A stretch of DNA of 64,000 bases, taken from positions 224,001 to 288,000 of the forward strand of contig CAVRJO010000002.1 of assembly GCA_963722255.1 (NCBI GenBank). The letters run 5' to 3'. Shown in pieces: positions 39,280 to 48,229 of the stretch. Source of the DNA: Candidatus Babeliales bacterium. Lineage in GTDB: Bacteria; Babelota; Babeliae; Babelales; JANWKD01. Below the pieces are notes generated by a model. It saw nothing but the letters and a program-made list of their open reading frames with translations, was not told the DNA's origin and made no database searches. Positions within the stretch are counted from its first letter, which is position 1; every line of letters starts with the position of its first letter. A program made the position numbers and the translations under genes.

Positions 39280-39373
39280 ATAGTTTCTTTTTTGACAACA
39301 TTCCCAAGATTTTGATAAAGTTATGCCCAATTATTAGTGTGCAACAAAAAAAATTTTGGGAGCGTTTGTTTAT

Positions 39374-40840
39374 ATGAAGCAACGTATATCATTCTATTCT
39401 CTTATTCTTCTTCTCGTTATTTTTACCATTGACGCAAAATTTTTTAGTCGACAAGAAGAGCATTGGGATTGGTCAAAAATTCCATTTCTAGACGTTGAAT
39501 TCCCTTCAACTTTTTTATGGGGAACCTCAGAATCAGCTATGCAAGCTGAAGGCGATGTTTCAGCGCTCGGTAAAAGAACTCGAAATTCATGGACTCTCTG
39601 GGAATCGCAAGAAATTGTCATAAATGGCATAAAACAACCTCGCGTTCCCCTTGATAAACGTGTTGGTGATGCATGTCAACGCTGGACACGTTATAAAGAG
39701 GATGTGCAGCTCATTAAAAAACTTGGCATGAATGCACACCGGTTTTCAATTGAATGGAGTAAAATAGAACCCGAAAAAGGCGTTTTTGATACTGATGCAA
39801 TGGATCATTATATCGATTATGCTGAAGAAATGATAAAAAACGGTATTCTACCCATTCCTACACTTTTTCATCACACTATGCCTGCTTGGCTCATAGATGT
39901 TCCAGCACCTCGAATGCCTGGCTTTGAAGATACACAAACTATTCAAGATTTTGTAGCATATGCTTTATTTGTTATACAAGCATTTCAAAAAGCCGGTCTT
40001 CTTGAAAAAATACCTTTCTGGATCACCATTAATGAACCCCTCGCCATTCCACTATCTGGTTACATTTATAATGTATTCCCTCCCGGCAAAAAATTTAAGG
40101 TACGTACTGCAGGAATAGTTGCAAAAAATATGCTTGATGCGCACATTGCAACCTATGATGCTTTTAAGAAAATCGATCCTACCCTTATGGTAGGCTTCAC
40201 GCATATAATGCAACCAATACAGCCCTATCGTCCCTGGAATCCACTTGATCAAATTCCCGCAACAATTTTTGATTATCTTGTAAATGATGTTGCACTCGAA
40301 TATTTCAAAACCGGCTACTTTAACTGGGTTTGGCTTGTAAGGGATTATAATGAAAACGCTATAAATAAGCTTGATTTCATTGGCATTAACTATTATACCC
40401 ACACGCTTATTAGTATGTTTAAAGAGCGTGCACGACCTGACGAAAAACTCTCTGAAGCTTATGGCGGAAAAAAGATCAAGGCTATTTATCCTGAAGGGCT
40501 CTATGATTCATTGCAAAAAGTTGCCACACTGGGAGTTCCTATTATAATTACCGAAAATGGCTTTGCTTATGATAATGTTGAGCTTCGTGATGAGTATATA
40601 AAAAAACATATCTATGTTCTTTATAAAGCAATGCAAGAAGGTATTGATATCCGAGGATATCTCTTTTGGACCTTAACGGATTGTTTTGGCTGGACCAGCG
40701 CGCATCAGAGCACCCATGGTATCTATAAGGTTGATTTTGAAACACAAGAAAGGACATTTAGGCCCAGTGCTCAATATCTTGTTGATGTTATTGCTCATAA
40801 AAGTTCATCCTCAACGTTAACACACCGACTTGGAAGCTAA
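39374..40840 (+). CDS. Exported glycoside hydrolase family 1 protein (copy 1)
   Basis: FPSTFLWGT, RFSIEWSKIEP, TINEP (acid/base), INYY, ITENG (nucleophile); signal peptide IDA. Confidence 0.93.
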   Translation: MKQRISFYSLILLLVIFTIDAKFFSRQEEHWDWSKIPFLDVEFPSTFLWGTSESAMQAEGDVSALGKRTRNSWTLWESQEIVINGIKQPRVPLDKRVGDACQRWTRYKEDVQLIKKLGMNAHRFSIEWSKIEPEKGVFDTDAMDHYIDYAEEMIKNGILPIPTLFHHTMPAWLIDVPAPRMPGFEDTQTIQDFVAYALFVIQAFQKAGLLEKIPFWITINEPLAIPLSGYIYNVFPPGKKFKVRTAGIVAKNMLDAHIATYDAFKKIDPTLMVGFTHIMQPIQPYRPWNPLDQIPATIFDYLVNDVALEYFKTGYFNWVWLVRDYNENAINKLDFIGINYYTHTLISMFKERARPDEKLSEAYGGKKIKAIYPEGLYDSLQKVATLGVPIIITENGFAYDNVELRDEYIKKHIYVLYKAMQEGIDIRGYLFWTLTDCFGWTSAHQSTHGIYKVDFETQERTFRPSAQYLVDVIAHKSSSSTLTHRLGS

Positions 40841-41017
40841 AGGTAATAAATAATAGCATAAAATAGGTAAAACCACAGAATTTAAGACCTACGGAAATTA
40901 ATCAGTTTTGCTTCATAAACATTATTTACAAATAGGGCTTTTGCTTCTTTATTACTATTACTATATACTAAAAGGAAAATAGTAGTTTTAATAACCTTAT
41001 ACAGAGGCAACCTTTCT

Positions 41018-42649
41018 ATGAAGAAAATTTTACTTATACTAAGTTCAATCATATGTACCTCCTTACATGCTTTTGGAGTGCATAGTCTTGTAGATCAAAT
41101 AGGTACAACAATAAAAGATCATCCTTACGCAACAGCAGCATTTGTGGGCTCAACAATAGCCCTTGGAAGCCCCTGCTTCTATTTTCGTAACCATACTCTT
41201 GAAGAGCGATGGGATTGGGATTCTATCGATACAAGCAAAGTAAAATTTCCTCAAAATTTTGTGTGGGGTACCGCAGATTCAGCCTTCCAAACCGAGGGAA
41301 TTGAAACAGCCAACAATAAAACTATACAAAACACCTGGACAGCTTGGGAAGAAAAGCTTGTTTCTGAAAAATACTCACTCTTTACCCCGACTGGGGTCCT
41401 TAAAAAATTAGGAATACTTAATGTTGAAAAACAGCCACGAACCCCGGTAGAAGACCGAGCAGGGTACGCCTGTCATCGCTGGACTCACTATAAAGAAGAT
41501 GTCAAATTACTCAAAAAAATTGGCGTAAAAATTCACCGCTACTCTATTGAATGGGCTAAAATTGAGCCTGAAGAAGGTATTTATGATCCTGATGCACTTC
41601 AGCATTATATAGACTTCACTTGGGAATTAATCAACAATGGCATTATACCCTGCCCTAACCTTTTCCATCATACCTTGCCGTTATGGTATGCAACCAAGGG
41701 AGGATTTGAAAAGTCTGAAAATATCGAAAAGTTTGTTGAATACGCCGTCTTTATTTTCACAGCATTCCAAAAAGACGGATTACTTGAAAAAACAAAAATA
41801 TGGTTTGCCTTTAATGAAGCCATTGGGGTTGCTTTAGCTGGTTATGTTGATGGCAAAATACCTCCTGGAAAAAAAATGCAACTAATACTAGCTGGTACTG
41901 TTGCCAAGAATATGCTTGATGCTCATATCAGGATTTATGATGAATTTAATAAAATTGATAATTCAATCAAACTTGGCTTCATTCACGTTATGATGCCCAT
42001 AACAGCCTACAACCCGCACAACCCAGTTCATCAACTCTTTGCACAAACCTTTAATCATCTTGTTAATGATGTTGCTCTTGAGTATTTCAAATCAGGGACA
42101 TTCAACTGGCTCAATCTTGTTAAAGATAACAATCCAAATGCTCTTAACAAGATAGATTTCATTGGTGTAAACTATTATTCTCACTTACTTCTCTCATTAA
42201 CGGGCCCAGCAATCAGGCCTGATGAAGTGTGTGCTGATGGATATCCTGGAGCAAAACGAACAAAACCAATATATGCTGAAGGATTATATCAAACTTTAAA
42301 ACATGCTGCTTCATACGGATTCCCGCTGGTTATTACAGAAATTGGTTTTGCAGCAAAGCTTGAAAGCGTTGATCTAAGAACTGAATATTTCAAAAAACAT
42401 TTTTATGCAATGCACAAGGCAATGCAAGAAGGTGTTGATTTGAGAGGTTGTTTCATTTGGACTGCTTTTGATTGCTTCGGATGGAATTCAGGACAACATA
42501 GTACTCATGGTATTTATGCAGTAGATCATAAAACGCAGGAAAGAACATTAAAGAAAAATGCTTGGTATATTGTTGAAATGTTTAATAAGCCGTTTTCAGA
42601 AAAACAAATTGAGCCTCTTGAAGCTATAAAGAAACAAACTACCATTTAG
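41018..42649 (+). CDS. Exported glycoside hydrolase family 1 protein (copy 2)
   Basis: FPQNFVWGT, RYSIEW, FNEA, VNYY, ITEIG; signal peptide plus a second hydrophobic segment. Confidence 0.92.
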   Translation: MKKILLILSSIICTSLHAFGVHSLVDQIGTTIKDHPYATAAFVGSTIALGSPCFYFRNHTLEERWDWDSIDTSKVKFPQNFVWGTADSAFQTEGIETANNKTIQNTWTAWEEKLVSEKYSLFTPTGVLKKLGILNVEKQPRTPVEDRAGYACHRWTHYKEDVKLLKKIGVKIHRYSIEWAKIEPEEGIYDPDALQHYIDFTWELINNGIIPCPNLFHHTLPLWYATKGGFEKSENIEKFVEYAVFIFTAFQKDGLLEKTKIWFAFNEAIGVALAGYVDGKIPPGKKMQLILAGTVAKNMLDAHIRIYDEFNKIDNSIKLGFIHVMMPITAYNPHNPVHQLFAQTFNHLVNDVALEYFKSGTFNWLNLVKDNNPNALNKIDFIGVNYYSHLLLSLTGPAIRPDEVCADGYPGAKRTKPIYAEGLYQTLKHAASYGFPLVITEIGFAAKLESVDLRTEYFKKHFYAMHKAMQEGVDLRGCFIWTAFDCFGWNSGQHSTHGIYAVDHKTQERTLKKNAWYIVEMFNKPFSEKQIEPLEAIKKQTTI

Positions 42650-42662
42650 AAATAGGATATTT

Positions 42663-44327
42663 ATGAAAATTATGAAACTAGTAGTAGCGCTTATTGCGCT
42701 CATTCCCTTATACACAGAGCCAATGCAAAGCGAAAAGCTTATTTCCTTTGCAAAAATTTTACCATCGCAAGCAAAACAGCTTGCCTGCATGTATCCTAAA
42801 ACAACTGCTGCCCTCTTGGCAACCACCGCTTTAGGTACTACCTGGTATTATGCAAATGGCTACGAAAGGCGTGAAGATTGGGACAATCAAGAATTGGATA
42901 TGACTAAATTCCCTAAGGAAACCACTTGGGGAACCGCCAACTCAGACCTTCAATTATGTGGTGTTCAAACAGTAAAGGGCAAAAAGGTAAAAAATAGTTG
43001 GACAAAATGGCAAAAAGAATTGATTACACCAAAAGACAATCGTCCTTGGTGGCAGAAATTTTTCTATGAAAATCCAAACAGTACAAAAGTTCCTCGTATC
43101 CCTAAAAAACAAAGGATGGGAACCGCAACAGGCCACTGGGATAACTATCAAGAAGATTTTAAATTGTTAAAAGAAGCGGGAATTGAAACATTTCGAACAT
43201 CAATTGAATGGAGCAAAATTCAACCAGATTCTCATAATGAGTATGATACTAAGGCAATGAAATATTATAATGACTATCATAAAGTATCAACTGAAGCATT
43301 TAAAGAAGTTACCATCAATGGATTCCATCATGCTTGGCCCGATTGGTTTGATGAGCTCGGCGCTTTTGAAAAAAAGGAAAATATTAAATATTATGTCGAC
43401 TATTATCTTTGGATGGTTGATCAATTGGCTCAAGAAGGCAATCTTAACGAAATTAAGCGATTTTTAACCTTCAATGAACCTGCAGGTTATGTACTCGCTG
43501 CGTATGTTTATGGCAAATATCCTCCTGGCGAAAAAATGCAGCTCAAAAAAGCTGGAATTGTCTTAAAAAACATGCTTGATGCCCACGTTGAAATTTATCA
43601 TAAACTTAAAGAAAAATATCAAGAACTACAGATAAGCATTGCTCATATGATGCAGCCATTACAACCTTACAATCCTTGGAATCCTCTCGATGTATTAACA
43701 GCGAAGCTATTTAATCATTTATTAAATAATGTCACCTTAGAATATCTTTCTACCGGTAAATTTAAATGGTTATGGTACATAAATGAAACAAATGAGAAAG
43801 CTAAAGGAACTTTAGATTTTGTAGGTGTTAATTATTACACCCATACACTCCTAAACTGGTTTAAGCCAAAAGTTCGCCCTACTGAGATTAGTTCTGATGC
43901 TTATGAAGGTGAAGAAGGAAAAGCACTCTATGCAGAGGGTTTCTATGATTCCCTTAAAACGGTTCATCGTTACTTTCCAGACAAGCCTATCATGATTACA
44001 GAATTAGGTTTTGCCTCAGAGAATAATGAAAAACGAACTGAAGCTTTCAAAAGATTTTTCCTTGTTCTACAAAGAGCAATACATAAAGATAACATGAAAA
44101 TTCTTGGCGTTGAAATCTGGGAATCATTTGCCGGTTATGGCTGGAACCAAGGGAATGGTGGCAAACATGCTCTTTTTGATGTCGATTATACTCAAGAAGA
44201 TAAACCACGAAAACTCAAACCAAGTTCCGAGGGTGTTTTAAATCTAATTGCTCAACATAAAAATTCTCGTAATGATCAACAGCAAAAAGAAACTGATACC
44301 TCAATAAACCTGGAAATAAAAACATGA
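42663..44327 (+). CDS. Exported glycoside hydrolase family 1 protein (copy 3)
   Basis: RTSIEWSKIQP, TFNEP, VNYY, ITELG; signal peptide plus hydrophobic segment; overlaps the next gene (ATGA). Confidence 0.92.
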   Translation: MKIMKLVVALIALIPLYTEPMQSEKLISFAKILPSQAKQLACMYPKTTAALLATTALGTTWYYANGYERREDWDNQELDMTKFPKETTWGTANSDLQLCGVQTVKGKKVKNSWTKWQKELITPKDNRPWWQKFFYENPNSTKVPRIPKKQRMGTATGHWDNYQEDFKLLKEAGIETFRTSIEWSKIQPDSHNEYDTKAMKYYNDYHKVSTEAFKEVTINGFHHAWPDWFDELGAFEKKENIKYYVDYYLWMVDQLAQEGNLNEIKRFLTFNEPAGYVLAAYVYGKYPPGEKMQLKKAGIVLKNMLDAHVEIYHKLKEKYQELQISIAHMMQPLQPYNPWNPLDVLTAKLFNHLLNNVTLEYLSTGKFKWLWYINETNEKAKGTLDFVGVNYYTHTLLNWFKPKVRPTEISSDAYEGEEGKALYAEGFYDSLKTVHRYFPDKPIMITELGFASENNEKRTEAFKRFFLVLQRAIHKDNMKILGVEIWESFAGYGWNQGNGGKHALFDVDYTQEDKPRKLKPSSEGVLNLIAQHKNSRNDQQQKETDTSINLEIKT

Positions 44328-44878
44328 AAATAATCAATACAAATTATTTCACTTCGTTGCTTGGCTTATTATTTGGCATAAGCCTTCTAATGCCAATATC
44401 AGCATTTGAACGCAAAGCAGGCTATTGGAATGGTCCTTCTGATGAAAACAACACCAGCTTTTTTGGTACATTAACTAACCCTAAAAGCCAACGGGAAGAT
44501 TGGTATAAGGTTACTCCCTATATTGCCGAATTTTGGTGTACCATTTCAAACATTGGATTTATAGCTGCCGGGATCCACTGCAAATCTCCTGAACTTTTAT
44601 TTGCAGGAGCTGCTTCGATTGTAAGTCATAGTATTCCTAAACAATGGCTTCTCTATGTTGATAAAATCGGTGTACTCATTGTTCTTTCCAAAGTTATTAG
44701 AGAACATAAGACGTTGACCAATAATCCTTGGCTTCTAATTCCAGTGGGTATTGCTGGCGCCATCAATGTAACAGATGCATATCTTGCACGAAATAAAGGG
44801 TTAACATGGCCTCATGTGGTTTGGCATTTATCTTCGGCATTATTAGCCTATGATTTTTTACGACGCACACAACAATAA
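44324..44878 (+). CDS. Alkaline ceramidase-like membrane hydrolase (CREST superfamily)
   Basis: GYWNGP and YKVTPYIAEFWCTISN (compare ACER3 GYWGP...YSVTWYIAEFWNTVSN); SxxxH (SIVSH), conserved Asp, HxxxH (HVVWH). Confidence 0.82.
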   Translation: MKIINTNYFTSLLGLLFGISLLMPISAFERKAGYWNGPSDENNTSFFGTLTNPKSQREDWYKVTPYIAEFWCTISNIGFIAAGIHCKSPELLFAGAASIVSHSIPKQWLLYVDKIGVLIVLSKVIREHKTLTNNPWLLIPVGIAGAINVTDAYLARNKGLTWPHVVWHLSSALLAYDFLRRTQQ

Positions 44879-46258: not shown

Positions 46259-48229
46259 TTAAACCTGGGTCCATTCCTGTTCTTCATTGCTCCATTCTTC
46301 ATTTTTTCGAGCTTCCTCCTCATATTCCTTAACCTTTGCCATCAACTGTCTATCAAAAGAATTAGAACCTGTACCTTCCGCAATTGGTTGCACCCTACCA
46401 ATCTGCGGCTTCAAAAGAAGCAATGCTGCAAGAGCATCTACATGATCTTGATTAGGAATAAGCGCTTGCGTTTTAATATCTAAAAGAAACTGCTCTAAGG
46501 CTGTTTTATAGTTCTTGTTTTTTGCATTAACTCTTACTCGTTGATTATTACCAAGGAGGTTAATTGCTTCAACATTTCCATGCTTTAAAGCATAATAAAA
46601 CAAGGAATTCTCTGGTTCATCAACTGCATTCCAATTGCACTCTTCCTGTAAAAGCAGTTCTAATTTTTGATTATCGCGCTTTTCTAAAAGCTTGATCGGA
46701 GAAATTTTAGAACGAAGCGCTCCCTTTGCTCTTAATACATCAATTGCTGCTTTACAATTATAACTATACGCATAATCCAACAATGAATTACCCAGTTCAT
46801 CAGCACAGCGAAGCGAAAAATTCATTTTTTCAAACTTTTTAATCAATTTCTCAATTTGATCTGGCATTTCTCTCGATAACGCCTGCAAATAACTCTTCCG
46901 TAACATTTCTAATCTCGGATTTTTTAAGCGATATTTATATGATGGAACGCCATTAAAAGTTTCATTAAAATATACTCGGGTAGAATTAAAGAGTTCTTTA
47001 TATTTTTCTTTTTCATCCCTATTATATTGAGTACCAAAAATTAAACTTGTTATCTTTTCATTATAACAAGGTGCAATATTAAGGCCTTTCATAGTACCAA
47101 AATTTTCATATATAATATTGCGAACAATCTGCGCATGCTCCTTTCCTGTAGCTGGATACAAGGCGATTATTGGTACAATGCCGTCGCAACTACGTTCTTG
47201 CAATTGCTGTGCAATCTCTTTTGATGATAACGAAAAATCTACATCCGTATAAACTTTGAAGAGGCTTAGAGACTCCCGAAATTGTTTATTATTTTTTACA
47301 AGATTTATTAATGAATAAATTAAAAATATATAATCTTCTAAAGATTTTGGCATTAAATGTTCTTTATAATTTCCACTTACCCGGCTCACAAGTTCTAAGT
47401 CAATTCTTCTATTAATCTTATTATTCACCAAGTTTTTTAAATCACCTTCGCGATCATCTCGTATGCCCTCAAAAAGTTTTGTTTGACGAGTTGAATCATT
47501 ACCAAATATAAGATAATGTTTATAATATAAAACAGTTATTCCATAGTGAGAAAATTCCAGATCTTTTTTTATATTTTTAACAATCTGTGCAAGAGGCTGA
47601 ACCAGCCTTCCTTTTATACATGAACCAAAATCATCAATAACATCTTCTTTGAGTTGATGCAATGGCGCAGAAATAGTTCCTACTGTGCTCATTGTATTTG
47701 GTATATTGCCCAACATAGAATCTATACCTTCAGGTAGAGGTAGATAATTCTCAATGGGCTCTATTGATGCTCTTATTAATTGCGATTCAACACCCAAGGC
47801 GGGAATTATGCTTTCCTCAATAGATACTTGCTGCGGCTCAATGCATAATGCACTGTGATATTGCTTTGGAGCATTAAAGGCAAATGGTACATTATGATCA
47901 ATATCCTTCTTTGTATGCCTCAACCAGAAAAAATTCGAACTCTTAAACCATGACCAACGCTTAAACAGATCATTTGTAAAAGTAAGAGTGTATCTTTTTG
48001 GCACTTCCTCTTGCTTTTTGGATTGATCCCCCGATGTATACCAGTTTTTTATGGCAACCATAGAATAAATGGCATAGTGTGCTACAAAACTGTTTTTGAT
48101 CCTATCGCGATAAGGTTGAGTCAAACCTGGAATAATAGAAAAAGTCGTTTTAGTCGCAAAAAGTAACCCTGCAATGAGGATACCACAATACAAGCGATAT
48201 TTTTTACTATAATGGTAATTTATTTTCAT
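46259..48229 (-). CDS. Exported protein with C-terminal ankyrin repeats
   Basis: Hydrophobic N-terminus; GNSLLDYA, ENSLFYYALKHGNVEAINLL, VNAKNKNYKTAL. Confidence 0.75.
   Translation of the reverse strand: MKINYHYSKKYRLYCGILIAGLLFATKTTFSIIPGLTQPYRDRIKNSFVAHYAIYSMVAIKNWYTSGDQSKKQEEVPKRYTLTFTNDLFKRWSWFKSSNFFWLRHTKKDIDHNVPFAFNAPKQYHSALCIEPQQVSIEESIIPALGVESQLIRASIEPIENYLPLPEGIDSMLGNIPNTMSTVGTISAPLHQLKEDVIDDFGSCIKGRLVQPLAQIVKNIKKDLEFSHYGITVLYYKHYLIFGNDSTRQTKLFEGIRDDREGDLKNLVNNKINRRIDLELVSRVSGNYKEHLMPKSLEDYIFLIYSLINLVKNNKQFRESLSLFKVYTDVDFSLSSKEIAQQLQERSCDGIVPIIALYPATGKEHAQIVRNIIYENFGTMKGLNIAPCYNEKITSLIFGTQYNRDEKEKYKELFNSTRVYFNETFNGVPSYKYRLKNPRLEMLRKSYLQALSREMPDQIEKLIKKFEKMNFSLRCADELGNSLLDYAYSYNCKAAIDVLRAKGALRSKISPIKLLEKRDNQKLELLLQEECNWNAVDEPENSLFYYALKHGNVEAINLLGNNQRVRVNAKNKNYKTALEQFLLDIKTQALIPNQDHVDALAALLLLKPQIGRVQPIAEGTGSNSFDRQLMAKVKEYEEEARKNEEWSNEEQEWTQV

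Follow-up and report, generated by a model that had tools for sequence, protein, structure and literature searches.

Alkaline ceramidases belong to the CREST superfamily of membrane proteins, together with the PAQR/AdipoR, Per1, SID-1 and TMEM8/Myomaker families. Seven conserved core membrane segments are described as common to the CREST members (PMC3146951, PMC13562381), whose proposed activity is the hydrolysis of acyl groups bound through an amide or ester linkage (PMC3146951). In human ACER3, H81, H217 and H221 coordinate the zinc, and S77 and D92 hold the catalytic water; a D19-W-C-E-x-N24 motif and an A-E33-F motif together make up a Ca2+ site, C21 bonds C196 of the sixth transmembrane helix (TM6), and the lipid pocket is lined by TM5 and TM6 (PMC6303388). 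The same source states that ACER3 cannot accommodate glucosylceramide. Among the enzymes of glycoside hydrolase family 1 (GH1), the catalytic Glu residues are held by NEP and TENG motifs (PMC11978721), and E451 pairs with F460 in beta-glucosidases, whereas S451 pairs with Y460 in 6-phospho-beta-glucosidases, where the smaller residue at 451 makes room for the O6 phosphate (PMC4013033). Homologues of both kinds lie side by side in the DNA analysed here, a stretch of 64,000 nucleotides from a Candidatus Babeliales bacterium (assembly GCA_963722255.1, contig CAVRJO010000002.1, positions 224,001 to 288,000 of the forward strand), the whole of which is called the window. The genes under study (positions 39374-44878, + strand) are three GH1 genes, GH1a, GH1b and GH1c, followed by a fourth gene that encodes a protein of 184 amino acids. 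An earlier note on this DNA had joined the four genes into a candidate exported module for glycosphingolipid degradation, with the fourth gene as a eukaryote-like alkaline ceramidase. Our results indicate that the fourth gene is a five-helix minimal homologue of the ceramidase/CREST proteins, in which sequence and predicted model point to an intact catalytic residue set, and that it lies beyond routine annotation.

The fourth gene and the alkaline ceramidase family

The Pfam ceramidase model PF05875 scores the 184-amino-acid protein at 21.8 bits over residues 58-85, below its gathering cut-off of 32.5 bits, and no NCBIfam model matches the protein. The relationship emerges at the level of the family. 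Thirty of 48 family members match PF05875 at E <= 0.01, the best of them at 5.6e-13. A profile of 35 close members reaches human ACER3 at E 0.0021, and a profile of 48 diverse members reaches it at E 8.4e-14, the best value among solved structures, where the E-values of profiles built on our own alignments depend on those alignments. The 48-member profile also reaches proteins that stand above the Pfam ceramidase cut-off, including a fungal alkaline phytoceramidase, and hhalign gives a probability of 98.2% against a ceramidase of 263 amino acids that itself scores 149 bits on PF05875. The AlphaFold2 model of the protein has a mean predicted local distance difference test (pLDDT) value of 88.7 and a predicted template modelling (pTM) score of 0.80. 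When this predicted model was compared with solved folds, ACER3 came out on top (Z 12.7, root-mean-square deviation 2.5 A over 143 residues, 20% identity), followed by Myomaker (Z 9.5), SIDT2 (9.0), bacteriorhodopsin (8.8) and AdipoR1 (8.7). Since bacteriorhodopsin also ranks among these matches, ACER3 alone is set apart from generic helical bundles. Foldseek taken alone returns nothing at E <= 0.001, with ACER3 as its top match at E 0.025. The name of CREST-family gene given in the earlier note is therefore borne out by the profile, hhalign and fold matches as a statement of homology, for a protein that stays under the Pfam ceramidase cut-off. The description as a eukaryote-like alkaline ceramidase of the standard type has to be given up, as the protein has five helices against seven and most of the ACER Ca2+ motif is gone. 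Judged from its sequence, the fourth gene encodes a real but atypical, shortened homologue of alkaline ceramidases, which we call the mini-ceramidase.

Eight residues of the mini-ceramidase, E58, E69, S98, H102, D113, D151, H164 and H168, are invariant across the 48 members, which extend down to 22% identity; as these residues are of catalytic type, a broken or decaying gene was rejected. Five of them (S98, H102, D113, H164 and H168) align with S77, H81, D92, H217 and H221 of ACER3, so that every residue named above for the zinc and the catalytic water has its counterpart. Because the catalytic set is invariant across such deep divergence, we argue that the protein would be an active metal-dependent hydrolase. 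The Ca2+ site and the Cys21-Cys196 disulfide are not retained. The A-E-F motif and the Glu of the longer motif are kept, and D, W, C and N of that motif are replaced by S, Q, R and W, correspondences that were read by extending the printed alignment.

In the AlphaFold2 model, the signal-like segment is followed by five predicted helices (residues 70-86, 89-103, 107-133, 135-158 and 162-183), against the seven of the ACER family. Compared with the ceramidase of 263 amino acids, hhalign places a single gap of about 55 residues after TM3 and sets the fourth helix of the family, which bears the invariant D151, on the sixth helix of the ceramidase with its W-x2-D-x3-C motif; it follows from this placement that the missing helices are TM4 and TM5. 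The HMMER local alignment to ACER3 instead continues into TM4, which makes TM4-TM5 the likely, but uncertain, lost pair. Since helices have been lost, the substrate range of ACER3 is not transferable to the mini-ceramidase. The N-terminus is signal-like, with a Kyte-Doolittle (KD) value of 1.87 and a small-residue motif before F28. Because of this signal-like N-terminus and the odd number of helices, the segment before TM1 and the metal site should face the periplasm, and the metal site would lie in the same compartment as the GH1 proteins, which are themselves predicted to be exported. A homodimer prediction with two copies of residues 26-184 scored 0.00 and counts neither way.

The mini-ceramidase has 97 homologues of 105-230 amino acids in a large protein collection, on which ground a chance open reading frame was rejected, and 205 representatives were found among 1.84 billion sequences at E <= 0.001, nearly all of them short. 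Five of the seven members of at least 421 amino acids listed are fused to an alpha/beta-hydrolase-type domain (P0253, P0269, P0299, P0303 and P0344); the domain is a Peptidase_S9 match above the cut-off in four and a Hydrolase_4 match below it in one, with BAAT_C also named. These fusions fit lipid or ester hydrolysis in general and give no pointer to glycosidases. In one further member of 403 amino acids (P0359), a dual-specificity-phosphatase-like region is fused. A scan of IMG/VR with one family alignment gave no giant-virus relatives; a language-model look-up returned matches in viral clusters, to short giant-virus proteins, with scores of 0.77-0.85, which serve as a lead only. The family is rare and patchy among the genomes searched: the gene occurs in 10 of 261 Dependentiae genomes (9 of 145 genera) and in 4 of the 300 genomes searched in the phylum to which a chlamydial carrier belongs, one of the four being a weak partial match. 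In a tree of 20 rows, the proteins of the window, of the metagenome locus L031 and P0002 form a clade supported at 100/99, and the tree does not resolve the core clade, with 10 of 16 inner forks open, so that neither a transfer across phyla nor its direction can be claimed. The window genome also holds a second mini-ceramidase-like copy (G000:C2:90939-91446; L055 4937-5411, - strand), whose sequence changes frame between the first two helices, so that one part covers profile positions 18-82 and the other 80-186; the break reflects either a frameshift in a pseudogene or an error of the assembly. This copy resembles a different subgroup of the family and has no GH1 gene adjacent to it.

The GH1 array and its sugar-binding site

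The array and its surroundings comprise the following features.

39292..39321, + strand: promoter-like site just 5' of GH1a (TTGACA, 18 nucleotides, TAAAGT, with TG), a consensus match
39374..40840, + strand: GH1a, 488 amino acids, ATG start, a family-1 glycoside hydrolase with an export-type N-terminus
41018..42649, + strand: GH1b, 543 amino acids, a GH1 paralogue with a longer N-terminal region
42663..44327, + strand: GH1c, 554 amino acids, the GH1 paralogue that diverges most
44324..44878, + strand: mini alkaline-ceramidase-like (CREST) gene, 184 amino acids, with a signal-like N-terminus and five predicted membrane helices

For GH1a an alternative TTG start at 39356, upstream of the ATG, is also open. 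GH1a and GH1b are separated by 177 bp and GH1b and GH1c by 13 bp, and GH1c and the 184-amino-acid reading frame overlap by the 4 bp ATGA; the last two of these agree with the spacing given in the earlier note. The overlap suggests co-expression of GH1c with the fourth gene, which is probably co-transcribed with the array. The promoter-like site is weak evidence, because such sites are about as frequent in shuffled sequence (29 found in the region, 24.8 expected). A word search of sequence runs for signs of co-transcription found no RNA run and only two soil DNA runs, with a 0.06 share of the words. The mini-ceramidase gene resembles its neighbours in GC content (0.378, and 0.286 at third codon positions, GC3), and its native-like composition gives no sign of a recent acquisition.

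All three GH1 proteins match the GH1 model PF00232, with E-values of 1e-69 (GH1a), 6e-59 (GH1b) and 8.2e-45 (GH1c) and scores of 235.6, 200.1 and 153.5 bits (cut-off 22.6). The matches cover about positions 3-451 of the 453 of the profile across the three proteins (4-451 in GH1a), and they are the sole GH1 matches of the whole genome of 1.62 Mb. The acid/base Glu lies in NEP in GH1a and GH1c and in NEA in GH1b, and the nucleophile Glu in TENG, TEIG and TELG in GH1a, GH1b and GH1c, respectively. Pfam and motifs thus agree on three co-oriented GH1 genes with both catalytic Glu residues, as the earlier note had it. GH1a and GH1b are 51% identical and GH1c is 38% identical to GH1a and 39% to GH1b, identities which indicate that the three are old paralogues. 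As for the signal peptides that the earlier note ascribed to each GH1 protein, a hydrophobic signal-like stretch is present at every N-terminus (19-residue KD means of 1.93, 1.82 and 1.68 in GH1a, GH1b and GH1c), from which the proteins are predicted to be exported. The extra N-terminal hydrophobic segment proposed for the second and third copies also exists and its position is kept in relatives, but it is only weakly hydrophobic (KD 1.26 at residues 38-56 of GH1b and below 1.0 in GH1c), which makes it doubtful as a membrane span.

Among solved structures, the GH1 proteins come closest to generic beta-glucosidases of bacteria and archaea, at about 30% identity (best E 6.6e-63), and the equivalog models of NCBIfam stay far under their cut-offs, with 234 against 478.5 for the BGL model and 191 against 610 for 6-phospho-beta-galactosidase. 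Aligned to the best of these structures, all three proteins have Gly where the conserved N-F-E-W stretch has its Glu. Expressed in Spodoptera numbering, position 451 is Gly and the coupled position 460 is His in GH1a-c, so that the three carry neither the Glu451/Phe460 pair of beta-glucosidases nor the Ser451/Tyr460 pair of 6-phospho-beta-glycosidases, in line with the low scores on the 6-phospho models. We extended this comparison to 120 sequences, made up of the three window proteins and 117 homologues of at least 400 amino acids (of 120 listed). The column of the N-F-E-W Glu holds G in 48 sequences, S in 31, E in 22, C in 9, N in 7, A in 2 and Y in 1. Among the 60 listed rows nearest to GH1a (at least 45% identity) no Glu occurs; the 22 Glu-bearing rows have 35-43% identity. 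His predominates at the coupled position, and some relatives within the clade pair Ser with His or Tyr. The GH1 proteins of the window therefore belong to a Babeliales clade, exported as far as its N-termini indicate, that is without the usual glycone-binding Glu and has neither the beta-glucosidase nor the 6-phospho signature. The Gly/His pair may mark a remodelled glycone site, perhaps one that takes a sugar substituted at position 6 or different in some other way, and such a clade may hint that an unusual glycoside of the host serves as a nutrient. The loss of the glycone Glu speaks mildly against plain glucosyl- or galactosylceramide as the GH1 substrate.

Of 61 related genomes, 22 have GH1 genes, which frequently form tandem arrays of two to five. 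Around 11 GH1 loci of other Babeliales, GH3 glycosidases adjoin the array in four (L058, L062, L063 and L065), HAD-like hydrolases with hydrophobic N-termini in three by Pfam (L060, L064 and L066; one match above the Pfam cut-off and two at or below it) and in a fourth by BLAST clustering, and GT28-type glycosyltransferases in two (L061 and L062). A ceramidase-like gene stands beside GH1 in none of the 11. The GH3, HAD-like and GT28-type neighbours hint at a wider exported set for glycoside processing. Beside a four-gene GH1 array in one of these loci lies a gene for a 286-amino-acid protein that matches the eukaryotic mitochondrial carrier family (L058 7250-8110, genome G022; PF00153, 35.8 bits, above the cut-off). 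Four distant GH1 homologues of 604-629 amino acids (P0209, P0211, P0213 and P0216) carry thioredoxin-, redoxin- or AhpC-type domains according to precomputed Pfam matches, an unusual fusion for GH1.

Linkage of the two families across genomes

The names attached to the GH1 homologues are Candidatus Dependentiae or Babeliales, and those attached to homologues of the fourth gene also include Chlamydiae. We surveyed 32 loci of the mini-ceramidase gene, of which nine come from species-representative genomes (up to 10 kb on each side) and 23 from metagenomes. In none of the nine genome loci does a GH1 gene lie beside the mini-ceramidase gene; no conserved neighbours were recognised there, and the neighbours vary by locus. 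GH1 adjacency was found in one of the 23 metagenome loci, L031, which corresponds to one of the 18 loci with at least 2 kb upstream, or one of 17 when a probable duplicate is left out (L008 and L038, apparently the same contig). L031 comes from a close relative and has the same four genes between the same flanks, with a gap of 4 bp between GH1c and the fourth gene. Its proteins are 82% (GH1a), 77% (GH1b), 53% (GH1c) and 76-83% (fourth gene) identical to those of the window. A second case of the pairing is possible: P0002, 87% identical to the fourth-gene protein, and P0176, a GH1c-like protein at 52% over its full length, each lie on a single Logan contig of 6481 bp, and, judged by this equal length, probably on the same one. 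The GH1c counterparts in these relatives are thus only 52-53% identical, against 82% for the GH1a counterpart.

A genome of the same genus (G001, 99% complete) carries a syntenic array of three GH1 genes without the fourth gene, between flanks that it has in common with the window (yidC, recR and two genes beyond 45315). In place of the fourth gene it has, on the opposite strand (L054 10540-13785), genes for an O-methyltransferase, an MFS transporter and a GntR/FCD regulator, which makes the end of the GH1 array a variable site. Also near the array, at 46259-48229 on the - strand of the window, is a gene for a 656-amino-acid protein with weak, sub-threshold ankyrin-repeat matches; a partial relative occupies the same place in L031.

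Among the 61 related genomes, the fourth gene is present in three, all of them within the 22 that have GH1. Where both lie on one contig, the distance from the fourth gene to GH1 is 25 kb in G033, 160 kb in G054 and about 800 kb in G260; GH1 is on other contigs in G140, G214 and G231 and is absent from G082. Two larger carrier genomes, G063 and G064, one of them recorded as Chlamydiae, have no GH1. In the ten further carriers, counted by handle, GH1 is missing from G063, G064 and G082 and otherwise lies on another contig or no closer than 43 kb. Adjacency is accordingly absent in G033, G054, G082, G140, G214, G231, G260 and G061-G065; G062 and G231 are probably the same genome under two handles, as are G065 and G202. 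The check on linkage proposed in the earlier note has therefore largely gone against it: the pairing is seen only in the window genome and in one or two close relatives, does not recur in independent lineages among the loci and genomes examined, and is lineage-specific rather than general.

Explanations of the locus and known systems

The window genome (G000; 1.62 Mb in two contigs, 93% complete) encodes a PlsC-type acyltransferase, and two markers of type II fatty acid synthesis (FASII) have no match in this 93%-complete assembly, namely ketoacyl-synthase (PF00109), which was detected in 14 of 14 control genomes, and FabA/FabZ (PF07977), detected in 9 of 14. The absence of FASII, which the earlier note had put forward as a check, is upheld by both markers, and because they are missing, as far as the assembly shows, the bacterium appears to be dependent on fatty acids from outside. 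Dependentiae and Chlamydiae are host-dependent, intracellular bacteria of protists.

Taking these results together, we lean, with slightly better than even confidence, towards two separately evolved scavenging functions that are co-expressed here in a host-dependent member of the Babeliales (Dependentiae), rather than a conserved two-step pathway. The GH1 array would be a local tandem expansion of the exported GH1 clade that is widespread in Babeliales. Its proteins appear to retain the machinery of retaining glycosidases, with both Glu residues, and their most likely substrates would be beta-glycosides with a sugar that is modified or differs at O4/O6. The mini-ceramidase, with its complete set of Zn-hydrolase residues, would most likely be an intramembrane metal-dependent hydrolase with a periplasmic active site, which removes an acyl chain from a membrane lipid at an amide or ester bond by a mechanism modelled on that of ACER3. 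Such a release would help an organism without FASII to harvest acyl chains from its host. Because the mini-ceramidase gene follows the array at its 3' end in this lineage, the two kinds of enzyme may act on a common glycolipid. Several points weigh against keeping the two functions apart. The ATGA overlap in the window and the 4-bp gap in L031 favour co-expression with GH1c, genes of one operon often belong to one pathway, and the arrangement has outlasted a divergence that leaves GH1c only 53% identical between the window and L031. GH1 is found somewhere in three of three carriers among the 61 relatives, compared with 19 of 58 non-carriers, and in three of five and four of five further carriers, a co-occurrence that is weak, as the carriers are kin and non-independent and some genomes are probably included twice. 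On the side of the protein, the loss of two pocket-lining helices could mean a changed, non-hydrolytic role, and the export, the membrane topology and the catalytic competence of the mini-ceramidase are predictions from its sequence and model.

The reading of the earlier note, a dedicated operon in which the GH1 proteins strip the sugar off host glycosylceramide and the ceramidase-like protein then releases a fatty acid and a sphingoid base from the remaining ceramide, is in our view improbable. Since ACER3 cannot take glucosylceramide, prior deglycosylation is chemically coherent; host acyl chains would be needed where FASII markers are absent, both activities would be periplasmic on the predicted topologies, and the tight, co-oriented genes with their overlap are kept in L031 and probably on the second contig (P0002/P0176). 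Against this stand the comparative data, as the linkage is missing in 17 of 18 informative loci, in the same-genus genome G001 and in the other carriers checked, 19 of the 22 relatives with GH1 lack the fourth gene, and GH1 arrays of other Babeliales adjoin GH3 (4 of 11) or HAD-like hydrolases instead. The proteins point the same way: the GH1 copies are without the Glu that binds O4/O6 of unmodified glucose or galactose, and two of the seven helices of ACER are missing, including, by hhalign, the pocket-lining TM5. The pathway is thus possible and fits the absence of FASII, without support from comparative genomics; the claim rests on adjacency in one narrow lineage and should not be passed on as established. 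We attach a similarly small likelihood to a variant in which an undescribed minimal five-helix CREST form was recruited behind an exported GH1 array, both jointly dismantling a ceramide-based glycolipid of the host, whose sugars may be substituted as in amoebal lipophosphonoglycan, and feeding its acyl chains to the bacterium.

The locus could also be a module for another glycolipid, non-sphingolipid or substituted, the lipid portion of which the mini-ceramidase would attack as an esterase or lipase, in the manner proposed for CREST members of the Per1/PGAP3 type. Candidates are a glycosyl-diacylglycerol, a steryl glycoside or a glycan head group with phospho, phosphono or acyl substituents. 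The Gly451/His460 pair fits neither E/F nor S/Y and a 6-substituent could be accommodated beside its small residue, HAD-like hydrolases (3 of 11) and GT28-type enzymes (2 of 11) flank GH1 in other Babeliales, the alpha/beta-hydrolase-type fusions are carried by five of the seven long family members listed, and ester-linked acyl groups are within the activity proposed for CREST proteins. The linkage is, however, no better conserved on this account, and two of the HAD matches are at or below the Pfam cut-off, so that we think it unlikely. An origin of the adjacency by accidental insertion behind the array, with the mini-ceramidase unconnected to the GH1 proteins and remodelling the envelope lipids of the bacterium itself by amide or ester acyl removal at the periplasmic face, seems to us equally doubtful. 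It would agree with a gene that is usually solitary and has unrelated neighbours in the nine genome loci, with its native composition and with the different cassette of G001, which marks the end of the array as a variable spot. A core envelope function would be expected to be more widespread than 10 of 261 and 4 of 300 genomes, the named carriers are metagenome-assembled genomes of Dependentiae and Chlamydiae, host-associated groups in which a substrate related to the host is more readily expected, and the overlap with GH1c suggests co-expression. We therefore return to two separately evolved scavenging functions as the preferred account. As the carriers belong to host-dependent groups and FASII markers are absent here, the mini-ceramidase suggests an unnoticed route of host membrane lipid exploitation.

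The comparison with known systems places the GH1 proteins at the edge of a well-described family. Like GH1 beta-glucosidases, they have a full-length GH1 domain and keep both catalytic Glu residues; unlike these and the 6-phospho enzymes, they combine G451 and H460 in place of E/F or S/Y and have export-type N-termini. With the glycosylceramide-related members of GH1 named in the earlier note, GBA3 and lactase-phlorizin hydrolase, they share the family, and no specific similarity was found: none of the best 60 solved-structure matches listed bears either name, and nearly all are named beta-glucosidase or beta-glycosidase. GBA3 and lactase-phlorizin hydrolase keep the glycone Glu.

For the mini-ceramidase, full-text searches of the open literature found no description of a five-helix CREST or ceramidase form, no paper on a ceramidase in Dependentiae and none that joins alkaline ceramidase, Chlamydiae and amoeba. 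Its closest counterpart is human ACER3 (PDB 6g7o), with which the YIAEFW-x-T-x-SN stretch before TM1, the S-x3-H motif, the Asp of TM3 and the H-x2-W-H of the last helix align. ACER3 differs in its length of about 267 amino acids and its seven helices, whereas the window protein is bacterial, has 184 amino acids with five predicted helices behind a signal-like N-terminus, keeps only the Glu of D-W-C-E-x-N and has Arg at the position of the disulfide Cys. Within the wider CREST superfamily, the likeness lies in the invariant Ser, His, Asp, His and His. The window protein shows S-x3-H, Asp and H-x3-H on what its model predicts to be a CREST-like helical fold, and Myomaker, SIDT1/2 and AdipoR1/2 rank after ACER3 in the fold comparison (Z 8-9.5). 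The difference lies in the five helices of the window family against the seven core segments of the superfamily. If the five-helix protein is active, no smaller catalytic core of the ceramidase/CREST fold would be known, and it would serve as a compact model for intramembrane lipid hydrolysis, in which two of the seven core helices would be dispensable.

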